From IMG/VR virus record IMGVR_UViG_2737471841_000001, positions 1-29,144 of that record: a stretch of 29,144 nucleotides of DNA; one strand, 5' to 3'. Origin of the DNA: a virus. Taxonomy: Duplodnaviria > Heunggongvirae > Uroviricota > Caudoviricetes. Positions 2,433-7,553 of the stretch are shown piece after piece. Made by a program: the position numbers and the translations under genes. Numbering within the stretch: the first letter of the stretch is position 1; the number at the start of each line of letters is the position of its first letter. Below the pieces are notes generated by a model. The model did no database searches, was not told where the DNA came from, and saw only the letters and a program-made list of their open reading frames with translations.

Positions 2433-2461
2433 ATGACCATCTACATCACTGAGCTTGTAAC

Positions 2462-2493
2462 AGGCCTGCTGGTAATCGCAGGCCTTTTTATTT
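2462..2493 (+). terminator. Intrinsic terminator between replication and nin regions (tR2-like position)
   Basis: Perfect 8-bp stem AGGCCTGC / GCAGGCCT with 8-nt loop, followed by TTTTTATTT. Confidence 0.6.
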
Positions 2494-2508
2494 GGGGGAG
2501 AGTAAATC

Positions 2509-2715
2509 GTGGTTGAGTTGATTTTCTCTGCATTGAGGCTTCTCGGTGCTCTGTGGATGGTGGCGACGTTCATTGTGGTTGTTGGCTGTTTTGTCCGGTT
2601 GGTAGGCGAAGGTAAAGACCTGGTGGGTGTGCTTTTCGGTAGCATTTTCCTGTGGGTGATTATCGGTGTTATGCCTGTCGCTGTAGCAAAAATGGCGTGG
2701 CGTTTTGTGAGTTGA
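2509..2715 (+). CDS. Small hydrophobic membrane protein (two predicted TM segments), function unknown
   Basis: 68 aa, GTG start; hydrophobic stretches LLGALWMVATFIVVVGCFV and VLFGSIFLWVIIGVMPVAVA. Confidence 0.45.
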   Translation: MVELIFSALRLLGALWMVATFIVVVGCFVRLVGEGKDLVGVLFGSIFLWVIIGVMPVAVAKMAWRFVS

Positions 2716-2732
2716 ACTGAGGGTAAGTATCG

Positions 2733-3047
2733 ATGGACGAATCAAGAAAGCAGTTTGAGGAATACGTTGCCAAAAAATTGAGATTACCATTCGAGATGAT
2801 AACCGAGGCAAGAAATGGTGATAGGTACTTCGCATTTTCAAGCATGGATATTCGTCACTCCTTAAATGAGTGGTGGACTTTATGGCAGGCATCGCGAGCA
2901 GATATTGAAATAACCGCGCCAAAGTTTATCGACAGCAGAGAAGCATTAGCCAAAGGGTTTACCGTTGATTATTCCAATGGCTTCGGTGATGCAATGGATG
3001 CTTATGAGGAAAACATCCGCTCTGCTGGAGTCAAAGTGAAGGAGTAA
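2733..3047 (+). CDS. Hypothetical nin-region protein
   Basis: 104-aa ORF, stop 3 nt before the NinB start; no family recognised. Confidence 0.55.
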   Translation: MDESRKQFEEYVAKKLRLPFEMITEARNGDRYFAFSSMDIRHSLNEWWTLWQASRADIEITAPKFIDSREALAKGFTVDYSNGFGDAMDAYEENIRSAGVKVKE

Positions 3048-3049
3048 CG

Positions 3050-3460
3050 ATGAAGCAAACAATCTTCCTCCGAAGTAAGCAACAACAGCAAGCCGCAATC
3101 AACGCCATCCTCGAAACTCCTCTCGATAAAGACAAGCCAGTCACCATCCGCATTACTGACTACAAGCGCAATCTTGACCAGAACGCAAAATTTCACGCGA
3201 TGCTGGCGGATATCGCTCGTCAGGTTCAATGGTGCGGCAAATGGTTAAAACCGGAACAGTGGAAGGTTTTGTTGATTAGCGGTCATGCAGTGGCAACAAA
3301 ACAGGAAGCTGATGTTTTGCGCGGCCTTGAAGGCGAATTCGTCAACATTCGCGAAAGCAGCGCGCAGATGAGCGTGAAGCGTATGGCAAGTCTGATCGAG
3401 TACACAACAGCCTGGGCTATTGGTCAGGGTGTCAGATTTACCGACAGGAGGTACGAATGA
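3050..3460 (+). CDS. ninB: NinB (Orf-family recombination mediator)
   Basis: 136 aa, resembles lambda NinB as I recall it (e.g. [27 protein letters not shown]); nin-region context. Confidence 0.9.
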
Positions 3461-3639: not shown

Positions 3640-3806
3640 TTGACCCAAATCGAAGTTACGAACAAGAAAGCGTCGAGCGAGCTTTAACGTGCGCTAACTG
3701 CGGTCAGAAGCTGCATGTGCTGGAAGTTCACGTATGTGAGCACTGCTGCGCAGAACTGATGAGCGATCCGAATAGCTCAATGTACGAGGAAGAAGACGAT
3801 GAATGA
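3636..3806 (+). CDS. ninF: NinF (CxxC zinc-ribbon-like)
   Basis: [28 protein letters not shown] motif. Start placed at GTG 3636 (GTGA overlap with ninE stop); the alternative upstream start at 3594 (also GTG) gives 70 aa. Confidence 0.75.
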
Positions 3807-4521
3807 GTTAATAAATGGCAATGCCATCAAAATGACAAGCATTGAAATCGCTGAGTTGGTGGGTAAGCGTCATGACAATGTGAAACGTACCATCGAAACG
3901 CTGGCTAAAAATGGTGTTATCCGGCTTCCTCAAATTGAGGTTTCCGAAAGAATCAATAACTTAGGGTTCAATGTTCAGTACGAGCATTACGTCTTCGAGG
4001 GCGAACAAGGTAAGCGAGACAGTATTGTCGTTGTTGCCCAGTTGTCGCCAGAGTTCACCGCTCGCCTTGTTGACCGTTGGCGAGAGCTTGAAGAAGCTGC
4101 GGTTAATATCCCCAAAACGCTACCGGAAGCGTTGCGCCTTGCTGCTGACCTTGCTGAGCAGAAAATGCAACTGGAAAACCAGCTCGCAATTGCCGCACCT
4201 AAAGTTGAGTTTGCCGATCGCGTTGGCGAGGCCAGCGGAATTTTGATTGGAAACTTTGCAAAGGTTGTTGGAATTGGTCCAAACAAACTGTTTGCGTGGA
4301 TGCGCGATCACAAAATCCTTATTGCTTCAGGTTCCCGGCGCAATGTGCCAATGCAGGAATATATGGATCGCGGCTATTTCGCAGTGAAAGAAACAGCGGT
4401 CAACACAAATCACGGAATACAGATATCGTTCACCACAAAAATCACCGGGCGTGGTCAACAGTGGCTGACCAGAAAGCTGCTCGATAACGGAATGCTGAAA
4501 GTAACCGGGGAGGCTGCTTAA
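3799..4521 (+). CDS. Rha-family phage regulatory protein with KilA-C/antirepressor-like C-terminal domain
   Basis: N-terminal Rha-like signature IEIAELVGKRHDNVKRTIETL; C-terminal region resembles antirepressor KilAC domains. 240 aa. Confidence 0.75.
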   Translation: MNELINGNAIKMTSIEIAELVGKRHDNVKRTIETLAKNGVIRLPQIEVSERINNLGFNVQYEHYVFEGEQGKRDSIVVVAQLSPEFTARLVDRWRELEEAAVNIPKTLPEALRLAADLAEQKMQLENQLAIAAPKVEFADRVGEASGILIGNFAKVVGIGPNKLFAWMRDHKILIASGSRRNVPMQEYMDRGYFAVKETAVNTNHGIQISFTTKITGRGQQWLTRKLLDNGMLKVTGEAA

Positions 4522-4811
4522 TGGCTAACCTACGCAAAGAAGCGCGCAACAGAGAATGCCAGGTACGTATTTACGGCGTATGCAATGGTAATCCTGAAAC
4601 TACAGTTCTGGCACATTACCGGATGGCTGGAATTTGCGGAACGGGAATGAAGCCTGACGACCTGATCGGTGCATGGGCTTGTAGTGACTGCCACGCGGAG
4701 ATCGACCGACGCACCCATAATCTCGACAACAAAGACGCCAGACTTTACCACCTCGAAGGCGTGATCAGGACGCAGGCGATACTGCTGAAGGAGGGGAAGA
4801 TTAAGTCATGA
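4521..4811 (+). CDS. YbcO-like DUF1364 protein (Cys-rich putative nuclease)
   Basis: 96 aa, RECQVRIYGVCNGNPETTVLAHYR...CSDCHAEIDRR resembles E. coli DLP12 YbcO from memory; TAATG overlap with upstream gene. Confidence 0.8.
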   Translation: MANLRKEARNRECQVRIYGVCNGNPETTVLAHYRMAGICGTGMKPDDLIGAWACSDCHAEIDRRTHNLDNKDARLYHLEGVIRTQAILLKEGKIKS

Positions 4812-5170: not shown

Positions 5171-5355
5171 ACGCCACAATTCAAACGATACCAGAGCTTC
5201 TTATCCAGACACGAGGCAATCAGACTGAAGTGGCAAGGATGCTTTCCTGCGCAAGAGGAACAGTGCTCAAGTACAACCGAGACAGCAAAGGCGAGCGTCA
5301 TGTAATAGTTAACGGCGTCCTGATGGTCAAACAGGGCAAGAGGGGAAGACGATGA
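5167..5355 (+). CDS. ninH: NinH
   Basis: 62 aa, IPELLIQTRGNQTEVARMLSCARGTVLKY resembles lambda NinH; coupled start/stop. Confidence 0.8.
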   Translation: MNATIQTIPELLIQTRGNQTEVARMLSCARGTVLKYNRDSKGERHVIVNGVLMVKQGKRGRR

Positions 5356-5975
5356 GACTCGAAAGCGTAGCTAAATTTCATTCGCCAAAAAGCCCGATGA
5401 TGAGCGACTCACCACGGGCCACGGCTTCTGACTCTCTTTCCGGTACTGATGTGATGGCTGCTATGGGGATGGCGCAATCACAAGCCGGATTCGGAATGGC
5501 TGCATTCTGCGGTAAGCATGAACTCAGCCAGAACGACAAACAAAAGGCTATCAACTATCTGATGCAATTTGCACACAAGGTATCGGGGAAATACCGTGGT
5601 GTGGCAAAGCTCGAAGGAAATACTAAGGCAAAGGTACTGCAAGTGCTCGCAACATTCGCTTATGCGGATTATTGCCGTAGTGCCGCGACGCCGGGCGCAA
5701 GATGCAGAGATTGCCACGGTACAGGCCGTGCGGTTGATATAGCAAAAACAGAGCAGTGGGGGAGAGTTGTCGAGAAAGAGTGCGGAAGATGCAAAGGTGT
5801 CGGCTATTCAAGAATGCCAGCAAGCGCCGCATATCGCGCTGTGACGATGCTAATCCCAAACCTTACCCAACCAACCTGGTCACGCACTGTTAAGCCGCTG
5901 TATGACGCTCTGGTGGTGCAATGCCACAAGGAAGAGTCAATTGCAGACAATATTTTGAATGCAGTCACACGTTAG
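5352..5975 (+). CDS. Q: Late-gene antiterminator Q (lambda type)
   Basis: 207 aa; matches lambda Q as I recall it essentially throughout (MRLESVAKFHSPKSPMMSDSPRATASDS ... CRDCHGTGRAVD ... CGRCKGVGYSR). Confidence 0.95.
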   Translation: MRLESVAKFHSPKSPMMSDSPRATASDSLSGTDVMAAMGMAQSQAGFGMAAFCGKHELSQNDKQKAINYLMQFAHKVSGKYRGVAKLEGNTKAKVLQVLATFAYADYCRSAATPGARCRDCHGTGRAVDIAKTEQWGRVVEKECGRCKGVGYSRMPASAAYRAVTMLIPNLTQPTWSRTVKPLYDALVVQCHKEESIADNILNAVTR

Positions 5976-6017: not shown

Positions 6018-6053
6018 TTGACTTTTTGAATAAAGTTGGGTAAATTTGACTCA
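6018..6053 (+). promoter_or_regulatory. pR'-type late promoter with overlapping qut-like region
   Basis: TTGACT (6018-6023), 17-bp spacer, TAAATT (6041-6046), then TTGACTCAACGAT as in the lambda pR' initial transcribed region. Confidence 0.7.
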
Positions 6054-6410
6054 ACGATGGATAAATGCACTCGTTAAATAAAGCCCTGAGTTAATAGCTC
6101 GGGGCTTCTTGCGTTTTAAGCACGACCTTTCTGAAAGCGCATCAAACCAAATACCAGACAGACCAAAATAATCACCTTATCCGCTGTGGCTACGGTGCGG
6201 TGTGCTTTGCATAAAAGAAAACCAGCTCAATGGCTGGCTTCGTGAAAGCGGGTGGCAAGAGGTTGCGCTAACAACCTCATGCCGTTTTGCCCGTGCATAT
6301 CGGTCACGAACAAATCTGATTACTAAACACAGTAGCCTGGATTTGTTCTATCAGTAATCGACCTTATTCCTAATTAAATAGAGCAAATCCCCTCAATGAA
6401 GGGGTAGAGC

Positions 6411-6614
6411 ATGTACCGTATGGACAAAATCAGAGAATGGTTCAGTTACAGCTTCGGAGGACTGACTGCGATGGGTGGCATTCTCTCCCTGAATGACTGG
6501 GCTGTCATCATTGGTATTCTTTGTACTGTCGGCACATTTGGCATCAACTGGTACTACAAGCGCAAAGAGCGCGAGGACAGATTGAATGGCAATGTCACCG
6601 GCACTACGAAATAG
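6411..6614 (+). CDS. Class II holin, pinholin-like, with dual-start motif
   Basis: 67 aa; MYRMDK N-terminus (Met1 and Met4), two hydrophobic segments, charged C-terminus KRKEREDR; directly upstream of a SAR endolysin. Confidence 0.8.
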
Positions 6615-7089
6615 CGTAATAGCGGCGATAAGTGGCGGGGCTATTGCTATAGCATCTGTGTTAATCACTGGGCCAAGTGGTAACGATGGTCTGGAAGGTG
6701 TCAGCTACATACCATACAAAGATATTGTTGGTGTATGGACTGTATGTCACGGACATACCGGAAAAGACATCGTGCTCGGTAAAACGTATACCGAAGCAGA
6801 ATGCAAAGCCCTCCTGAATAAAGACCTTGCCACGGTCGCCAGACAAATTAACCCGTACATCAAAGTCGATATACCGGAAACAACGCGCGGCGCTCTTTAT
6901 TCGTTCGTCTATAACGTGGGCGCAGGCAATTTCAGAACATCGACGCTTCTTCGCAAAATCAACCAGGGCGATATCAATGGCGCATGTGACCAGCTACGTC
7001 GCTGGACATACGCTGGCGGTAAGCAATGGAAAGGGCTGATGACTCGCCGTGAGATTGAGCGTGAAGTCTGTTTGTGGGGGCAGCAATGA
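6586..7089 (+). CDS. SAR endolysin (T4-lysozyme-like muramidase with signal-arrest-release N-terminus)
   Basis: Gly/Ala-rich weakly hydrophobic N-terminus ([20 protein letters not shown]) followed by a lysozyme E-x8-D-x5-T triad ([16 protein letters not shown]). Confidence 0.9.
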
Positions 7090-7553
7090 GCAGAGTCACC
7101 GCGATTATCTCCGCTCTGGTTATCTGCATCATCGTTTGCCTGTCATGGGCTGTTAATCACTACCGTGATAACGCCATCGCCTACAAAGAACAGCGAGATA
7201 AAAAAGTCAGTGAGCTGAAGCAGGCGACCGCCACCATTACTGACATGCAGCAACGCCAGCGTGCTGCTGATGCACTCGATGCTAAATACACGAAGGAGTT
7301 AGCTGATGCGAAAGCTGAAAATGATGCTCTTCGGCGCAAGCTTGATAATGGTGGCAGGGTGCTCGTCAAAGGAAAATGCCCTGTGCCATCCTCAGCCAAA
7401 ACCTCCATCGCCTCCGGCATGGGCAATGATGCCACCGTCGAACTCTCTCCAGTTGCTGGACGAAACGTTCTCGATATCCGGGACGGAATTATCCGCGACC
7501 AAACAGCACTGAGAACGCTTCAGGAATACATCAGGACGCAATGCCTTCGATGA
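7086..7553 (+). CDS. Rz: Rz i-spanin
   Basis: [31 protein letters not shown] resembles lambda Rz; ATGA overlap with endolysin stop. An alternative GTG at 7074 exists. Confidence 0.85.
7306..7512 (+). CDS. Rz1: Rz1 o-spanin lipoprotein, embedded in Rz in the +1 frame
   Basis: Signal peptide with lipobox (LIMVAGC), proline-rich mature part ([11 protein letters not shown]); fully inside Rz. Confidence 0.8.

Follow-up and report, generated by a model that had tools for sequence, protein, structure and literature searches.

The tR2/ninA module at the replication-nin junction of a P22-like lambdoid phage and the two small conserved genes that follow it

What lies where the replication genes of a lambdoid phage give way to its nin region, and are the small open reading frames (ORFs) packed into this junction genuine genes? 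We addressed this question in a 29,144-nucleotide (nt) stretch of caudoviral DNA (IMG/VR record IMGVR_UViG_2737471841_000001, positions 1 to 29,144; hereafter the window), focusing on positions 2433-3047. A first-pass annotation, made from the letters alone, had described four features here, namely a hairpin with a T-run, a 27-codon ORF, an ORF for a 68-amino-acid (aa) protein with a GTG start and an ORF for a 104-aa protein, and had placed them at the head of the nin region. All four were found where it had put them, and the next gene downstream is ninB. The window belongs to a P22-like lambdoid phage, with long stretches ~97% identical to the Escherichia phages APC_JM3.2, HZ41 and IME10, and positions 2433-3047 very probably represent the standard transition from replication genes to nin region in phages of this type. 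At this junction we identified a module consisting of the terminator tR2 and the gene ninA, followed by two genes that are conserved in related phages.

The terminator and the ORF that spans it

The hairpin that follows the helicase stop codon (positions 2462-2485) consists of an 8-base-pair (bp) stem (2462-2469 paired with 2478-2485), with six G-C pairs, and an 8-nt loop (2470-2477). It is followed by the T-run TTTTATTT (2486-2493), and the folding energy of the hairpin alone is -15.7 kcal/mol. By generic criteria this structure did not stand out. A terminator scan found 8 such sites in 5 kb, compared to 5.5 ± 2.4 in shuffled sequences, so that the hairpin was not above chance, and the folding z-score of its 96-nt context was only -0.57. 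Rfam, searched at the gathering threshold, returned no family anywhere in the window. We take the hairpin to be a real terminator because of its homology to lambda tR2, not because of these statistics. Positions 2433-2502 match lambda positions 40567-40636 at 67 of 70 bases, and the part that carries the hairpin, the T-run and the Shine-Dalgarno (SD) sequence GGGGGAGAG (2458-2502) is identical in the two phages. At the homologous site, HK620 carries the label "terminator tR2" and mEp235 the label "rho-independent terminator", and HK75 also has an annotated terminator. The earlier proposal, a terminator in a position analogous to that of tR2, was borne out but understated: judged by this identity, the terminator is lambda tR2 itself.

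In lambda, tR2 terminates with an efficiency of ~0.9 if the preceding stop codon is at least ~30 bp upstream, but it is repressed almost completely by a stop codon lying just a few bp away (Li et al., NAR 2016, PMC4824070). In the window, 29 nt separate the helicase stop codon from the hairpin. If the lambda measurements apply here, a ribosome that terminates at this spacing would no longer disturb termination at tR2.

The tiny ORF that contains the terminator corresponds to a named gene. Its predicted peptide matched phrog_5907 with an expectation value (E) of 1.1e-18 (residues 1-26 of the 27-position profile), and the nucleotide sequence is identical to HK620 ninA at 83 of 84 positions. The HK620 annotation names the gene ninA, describes the product as "similar to P22 NinA" and places tR2 within it; HK630 also annotates NinA, and ninA is listed among the nin genes of both lambda and P22 in the literature. 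The first-pass annotation had correctly reported a 27-codon ORF that overlaps the next start codon, without recognizing it. On the strength of these profile and nucleotide matches, the tiny ORF is ninA (phrog_5907).

The translation signals at both ends of ninA are tightly packed. The stop codon of the primase/helicase gene (TAA, 2430-2432) directly abuts the ninA ATG, and a GGAG within the last helicase codons (2424-2427) serves as the ninA SD. At the other end, the ninA TGA (2514-2516) sits 5 nt beyond the GTG of the 68-aa gene (2509), resulting in an 8-nt overlap of the two ORFs. Chaining of nin genes by ATGA stop/start overlaps is credited in the literature to Kroger and Hobom (1982) and Cheng et al. 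(1995). For lambda, the NinA initiation site has been described as "not weak", and translation of NinA decreases termination at tR2 by only ~10% (Li et al., 2016). Lambda transcripts that end at tR2 hold a ninA that lacks a stop codon, and expression of an upstream reporter was halved (Li et al., 2016).

The tR2/ninA module in other phages

We compared the 70-nt module in ~200 loci, obtained from two IMG/VR pattern scans together with reference phages. For most phages, homology to the queried stretch sets in exactly where ninA starts (query position 133/134). The C termini of seven unrelated upstream proteins fall 0-4 nt from this start: Ren, two DnaB-type helicases, the primase/helicase of the window and three small proteins. 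Each of the seven upstream genes carries GGAG or GGGG 7-12 nt before the ninA start. On the downstream side, eight families begin at the ninA stop, with spacings between an 8-nt overlap and a 3-nt gap, arranged for example as ATGA, GTGA, TAAATG or GTGGNTGA. Besides ninB and the 68-aa family, they comprise a 108-aa family, a relative of the 104-aa family and four more, and the SD GGGGGAGAG is kept ahead of all eight.

The module itself varies little. Its nucleotide diversity was 0.03-0.04, compared to 0.146 in the adjoining 68-aa gene. We observed 23 variant types in ninA, 14 of them at third codon positions; these are synonymous in their own haplotype with one exception, A>G at position 27, which changes Ile to Met in haplotypes with an ATA codon. 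In the stem, each of the four transitions observed retains pairing, as G-U, and a pair-breaking C>A was present in one sequence. Among 5426 complete E. coli genomes, 1980 matched the queried stretch, mostly through the 70-nt module alone, with at least 95% identity.

These data support a role for ninA as a translated linker that would move ribosomes across the terminator, and for the 70-nt module as a universal joint in mosaic lambdoid genomes. The linker idea is not new in principle, as the ATGA chain has long been described; what our survey contributes is numbers.

One alternative is that ninA is not a useful gene, that its open frame is a by-product of a terminator followed by a ribosome-binding site, and that selection acts on the RNA element only. 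The peptide has T at the second position of 11 of its 27 codons, which the stem and U-tract impose, and its hydrophobicity is largely dictated by the codons of the GC-stem and U-tract. A chance open frame of 25 codons is not improbable (we estimate ~0.3), and the module is almost invariant at every codon position. NinA is also left unannotated by the Prokaryotic Genome Annotation Pipeline (PGAP) in the three RefSeq E. coli records that we inspected. The ~10% effect of its translation on termination points the same way, as does a Salmonella phage, S9-5 (described below), that lives without ninA. However, seven unrelated upstream genes supply an SD and a stop codon at the ninA start and eight downstream families start at its stop, and the predominance of third-position, nearly all synonymous, changes also argues for a translated frame. 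Moreover, the two remaining frames across ninA are closed, the lambda start site is active in vivo and, in one locus, the start codon has changed from ATG to GTG. We consider it unlikely that the frame is a by-product.

The locus with the altered start codon (L190, from IMG/VR) carries a GTGA overlap of ninA with the ren stop codon, an arrangement that fits selection for a start codon. A different rearrangement is present in HK022 (AF069308.1, locus L206, positions 510-1250). The first 10-11 ninA codons follow gene P, after which the sequence diverges into a different hydrophobic ORF of 34 codons, and a gene for a 204-aa HNH-type endonuclease lies between this ORF and the tR2 hairpin. This arrangement looks like a homing-endonuclease insertion into ninA. 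The endonuclease stop codon is 1 nt before the hairpin, and at this spacing, going by the published data, a terminating ribosome would strongly repress tR2. In Salmonella phage S9-5 (MW722521.1, locus L211, positions 680-910), the ninA-tR2 module is absent and the 3′ end of the helicase gene, aggaggattct, is joined straight to the ATG of a 68-aa family gene. The S9-5 helicase ORF extends for 19 extra codons, and the 68-aa family gene, which is not annotated, is intact.

The 68-aa and 104-aa genes

The 68-aa protein matched phrog_1165 over its whole length (residues 1-68 of 68, E 1.9e-35). The 206 homologues returned by database searches come from E. coli, E. albertii and Salmonella and are nearly all 68 aa long; each is annotated as hypothetical and none has a Pfam domain. 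We found the phrog_1165 gene in 107 phage records, among them HK022 (98.5% identical), HK75, HK629/630, mEp235, many Shiga toxin (Stx) phages and P22-like Salmonella phages, with identities down to 43%. AlphaFold predicted two long helices (residues 2-33 and 38-67; predicted local distance difference test (pLDDT) score 86) on either side of a conserved turn, G-E-G-K-D, and hydropathy was high throughout (grand average of hydropathy (GRAVY) 1.64; Kyte-Doolittle windows 1.0-2.5). The first-pass annotation had also proposed a protein with two transmembrane segments, and we regard the predicted two-helix inner-membrane hairpin as real. The C terminus, KMAWRFVS, bears the only net positive charge of the protein. 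Because of this charge distribution, both ends are predicted to be cytoplasmic and the GEGKD turn periplasmic. The intact family gene in S9-5, which lacks ninA and tR2, shows that the 68-aa gene is kept for its own sake.

Does the 68-aa protein act on the host from a prophage, as a moron? The first-pass annotation had suggested a host-directed moron (an exclusion, toxin-like or lysis-timing factor), and we found no support for this suggestion. Several properties of the protein are compatible with it. The protein is small and very hydrophobic, with two predicted transmembrane helices and a size near that of class II holins and small exclusion proteins; its gene is non-essential, being missing from lambda itself; and its always-weak GTG start could reflect toxicity. 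However, a scan of positions 2433-3047 for sigma-70-like promoters found none, and no terminator follows either the 68-aa or the 104-aa gene. Their G+C content, at 0.43-0.50, lies only slightly below the 0.47-0.55 of the neighboring genes. Both genes are located downstream of tR2 and are translationally chained to the early-right operon. As this operon is repressed in a lysogen, no expression of the two genes would be expected there. We rejected a moron on the grounds that no flanking promoter or terminator was found for the genes and that they are chained to their neighbors by overlapping or abutting signals.

PADLOC returned no match at E ≤ 1 for NinA, the 68-aa protein or the 104-aa protein, and we rejected a defense or exclusion system on this basis. 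Scans of the same three proteins against Pfam and NCBIfam gave no hits, and a literature search on nin-region membrane proteins found nothing relevant. Class II holins and pinholins (~68-71 aa) resemble the 68-aa protein in size and in having two transmembrane helices separated by a short turn. However, we detected no sequence match, no dual-start motif and no charged C-terminal tail, since the protein ends in KMAWRFVS. Moreover, class II holin genes lie beside the endolysin gene, whereas the 68-aa gene lies in the early operon, and the window has a separate lysis cassette at positions 6411-7553 that encodes a holin (phrog_20, 6411-6614), an endolysin (phrog_7) and Rz (phrog_13). A holin or lysis-timing factor was therefore also rejected. 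Taken as a whole, the proposal of a moron-type host-directed factor is highly doubtful.

The 104-aa protein has the same sequence as mEp235 gp47 (100% identity); its identity to Sf6 gp48 is 68%. Although the first-pass annotation had called its family unknown, this was inaccurate: the protein matched phrog_343 (E 2.3e-25), and nearly all of its listed homologues are annotated with PF26207.1, so that the assignment of the window protein to PF26207 runs via these homologues. A RefSeq relative that is 63% identical is named "phiTE_015 family protein", and one depositor describes a phrog_343 member as "similar to P22 EaD". In a profile search of 1.84 billion representatives, the family comprised 714 clusters at 50% identity, with most members between 85 and 105 aa. 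Some members, encoded by siphoviruses, carry a 36-aa N-terminal extension, and a scan of the long members for fused domains revealed only one, DUF551, to which the N-terminal module is fused (P0312). The family is mosaic, as its N-terminal part (MDESRKQFEE ... W..WQASRAAIE) recombines independently of the C-terminal part, and each half may be shared with quite different alleles.

The window protein is mildly acidic (isoelectric point 5.07), and its AlphaFold model has a pLDDT of 79. A structure search, as the first-pass annotation had proposed, revealed no PDB relative. Neither a sequence-profile search of PDB (best E 0.67) nor Foldseek of the model against PDB (best E 1.4) gave a useful match, and a BFVD search found only uncharacterized proteins, from phages both temperate and virulent. 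Searching the literature for phiTE_015, PF26207 and DUF7301 turned up nothing. The 104-aa protein is small and soluble and, by homology, belongs to a large and widespread uncharacterized phage family.

Existing annotations of the 68-aa gene differ. The mEp235 and HK630 records give 52 aa, HK022 and RefSeq give 207 nt, and in HK620 no gene is annotated at this position. In 80 of 80 IMG/VR loci, the gene starts with GTG behind GGGGGAG[AG]G, and in a divergent Salmonella allele ATG takes its place. By comparison, the internal ATG behind the 52-aa calls (2557, M17) is replaced by Ile in HK620-type alleles. Even alleles with only 44-55% identity keep an open frame of exactly 68 codons. The ratio of nonsynonymous to synonymous polymorphism (pN/pS) was 0.51 in frame, compared to 0.86 and 1.06 in the other two frames, and was similar for codons 2-16 (0.63) and the rest of the gene (0.47). 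These comparisons, like the full-length phrog_1165 match and the two long predicted helices, indicate that the GTG start proposed by the first-pass annotation is correct and that the 52-aa annotations are too short.

For the 104-aa gene, pN/pS in close pairs was 0.35 in frame, compared to 0.78 and 1.62 out of frame. We replaced the family-wide value of 0.71 with these close pairs because it was uninformative, being inflated by non-homologous segments in the mosaic alignment. Both genes are conserved in related phages, and the idea that one or both ORFs are non-coding spacer, or that the 68-aa gene is really a 52-aa ORF from ATG 2557, for which one could cite the shorter GenBank calls and the empty HK620 annotation, has next to no chance of being right given the in-frame constraint on both genes, the 714 clusters of the 104-aa family, the 207-nt calls of HK022 and RefSeq and the conserved start. 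Antisense ORFs at 2346-2645 and 2488-2922 were rejected as genes, as the selection signals favor the plus-strand frames.

The features of the junction are listed in Table 1. The 104-aa ORF is preceded by GAGG (2719-2722), and the SD of ninB, AAGGAG (3039-3044), lies inside the final codons of the 104-aa gene.

Table 1. Features at the junction of the replication genes and the nin region in the window
Feature	Positions	Strand	Basis
Primase/helicase gene, 626 aa	552..2432	+	Toprim_2, AAA_25 and DnaB_C domains; phrog_239, E 1.7e-170
ninA, 27 codons, spans tR2	2433..2516	+	phrog_5907, E 1.1e-18; named ninA in HK620 and HK630
Intrinsic terminator tR2	2462..2493	+	Hairpin fold and identity to lambda tR2; annotated in HK620 and mEp235
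SD GGGGGAGAG for the gene after tR2	2494..2502	+	Within the conserved module; in lambda serves ninB
Gene for 68-aa predicted two-helix membrane hairpin protein, phrog_1165, GTG start	2509..2715	+	Profile, homologues, AlphaFold
Gene for 104-aa protein, phrog_343 / PF26207, soluble, mildly acidic	2733..3047	+	Profile, pN/pS; 100% identical to mEp235 gp47
ninB, Orf-family recombination mediator	3050..3460	+	PF05772, E 2.6e-55; phrog_72

Elsewhere in the window, a gene for a Roi/Ant-like KilAC antirepressor (phrog_63, 3799-4521) lies within the nin region. It shares an ATGA overlap with an ORF for a 96-aa Cys/His-rich protein (4521-4811) at the position where HK620 carries an HNH gene of the HK97 gp66/HkbD type. 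Just downstream of a lambda-type Q gene (5352-5975), we observed a promoter-like site (6018-6046; TTGACT, 17 nt, TAAATT) followed by a 12-bp hairpin and T-run (6081-6107). Positions 6018-6107 look like the late promoter pR′ with its early terminator, the target of antitermination by Q.

Proposed mechanism and comparison with known systems

We propose that tR2 would halt early-right transcripts unless RNA polymerase has been modified by a phage N-type antiterminator. As ninA opens at the upstream gene's stop codon and closes at the start codon of the downstream gene, ribosomes could cross the terminator on read-through transcripts, and GGGGGAGAG at the 3′ end of the module would be the ribosome-binding site of the gene that follows. 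Transcripts ending at tR2 would carry a ninA with no stop codon, and its ribosomes would need rescue. The 68-aa and 104-aa genes would then be exchangeable nin accessory genes whose products are made only in lytic growth, after antitermination, with delayed-early timing. Coupling of the GTG start of the 68-aa gene to ninA should hold the level of its product low.

Several considerations weigh against this reading. The N-like gene and the nut sites lie outside the window, and antitermination at its tR2 is assumed by analogy. The downstream GTG (2509) has a good SD of its own and may not need a hand-over of ribosomes from ninA, and S9-5 shows that the 68-aa gene can do without ninA and tR2. The excess of third-position changes in ninA was calculated from only 23 variant types, and the search pattern fixed the first 14 nt in part of the sample. 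The near-invariance of the module could stem in part from frequent recombination instead of selection. Lastly, a pN/pS of 0.51 indicates only moderate constraint on the 68-aa gene.

What might the two proteins do? Our best guess, made without much conviction, is that during lytic development both modulate processes of the phage or its host. The 68-aa protein might affect the host membrane in the lytic phase, and we do not think that either protein is a fitness factor expressed from the prophage. We can also imagine a more far-reaching scheme, in which ninA-tR2 is a portable "decision and relay" cassette and the 68-aa protein, possibly with NinA, is an unrecognized lytic-phase inner-membrane effector. 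In such a scheme, the stop-less ninA on terminated transcripts would commit early replication-gene mRNA to ribosome rescue and decay, while on antiterminated transcripts ninA would pass ribosomes to whichever accessory gene recombination had put downstream. If so, the 68-aa protein should be strictly dependent on antitermination and low in abundance. We give this scheme little credence.

The element and the genes described here are already known, tR2/ninA by name and the two genes as hypothetical genes of HK022 and mEp235 to which they are 98-100% identical. Our results nonetheless bear on annotation: the 68-aa call from the GTG should replace the 52-aa calls in mEp235 and HK630, and the gene is missing from the HK620 and S9-5 records. 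The survey provides a clear case of functional constraint on a mosaic boundary, at which seven upstream and eight downstream families keep the coupling, and the tR2/ninA module alone can be found in roughly one in three complete E. coli genomes. As common uncharacterized families, phrog_1165 and PF26207 are reasonable targets for expression screens.

The closest known counterparts of the 68-aa gene are the phrog_1165 members HK022 gp58, mEp235 gp46 and Stx2 phage 86 orf70. Their products are 85-98% identical to that of the window, and the genes share the 68-codon frame, the GTG start and the place after tR2. Nothing of substance differs, although the mEp235 and HK630 records give the last 52 codons only. 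Similarly, the phrog_343 genes for mEp235 gp47 and Sf6 gp48 occupy the same position ahead of ninB as the 104-aa gene.

The module also invites comparison with the leader-peptide attenuators of trp and pyrBI. In both cases, a short ORF is translated across or beside an intrinsic terminator, and the position of the ribosome could affect termination. Unlike these attenuators, tR2/ninA has no alternative antiterminator hairpin and no regulatory codons, and control would be exerted by N-type antitermination. We rejected the attenuator interpretation, as the published effect of NinA translation on termination is so small.

Lambda provides the nearest parallel for the module itself. In lambda, tR2/ninA (40567-40647) has the same position between the replication genes and ninB, the terminator lies in an ORF of the same frame, and this ORF starts where the upstream gene has its stop codon. 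The partners on either side differ. The upstream gene in lambda is ren, joined through an ATGA overlap, whereas in the window it is the primase/helicase gene, whose TAA is followed by the abutting ATG. Lambda ninA has 26 codons and overlaps the ninB start through ATGA, whereas window ninA has 27 codons and overlaps the GTG-initiated membrane-protein gene by 8 nt.

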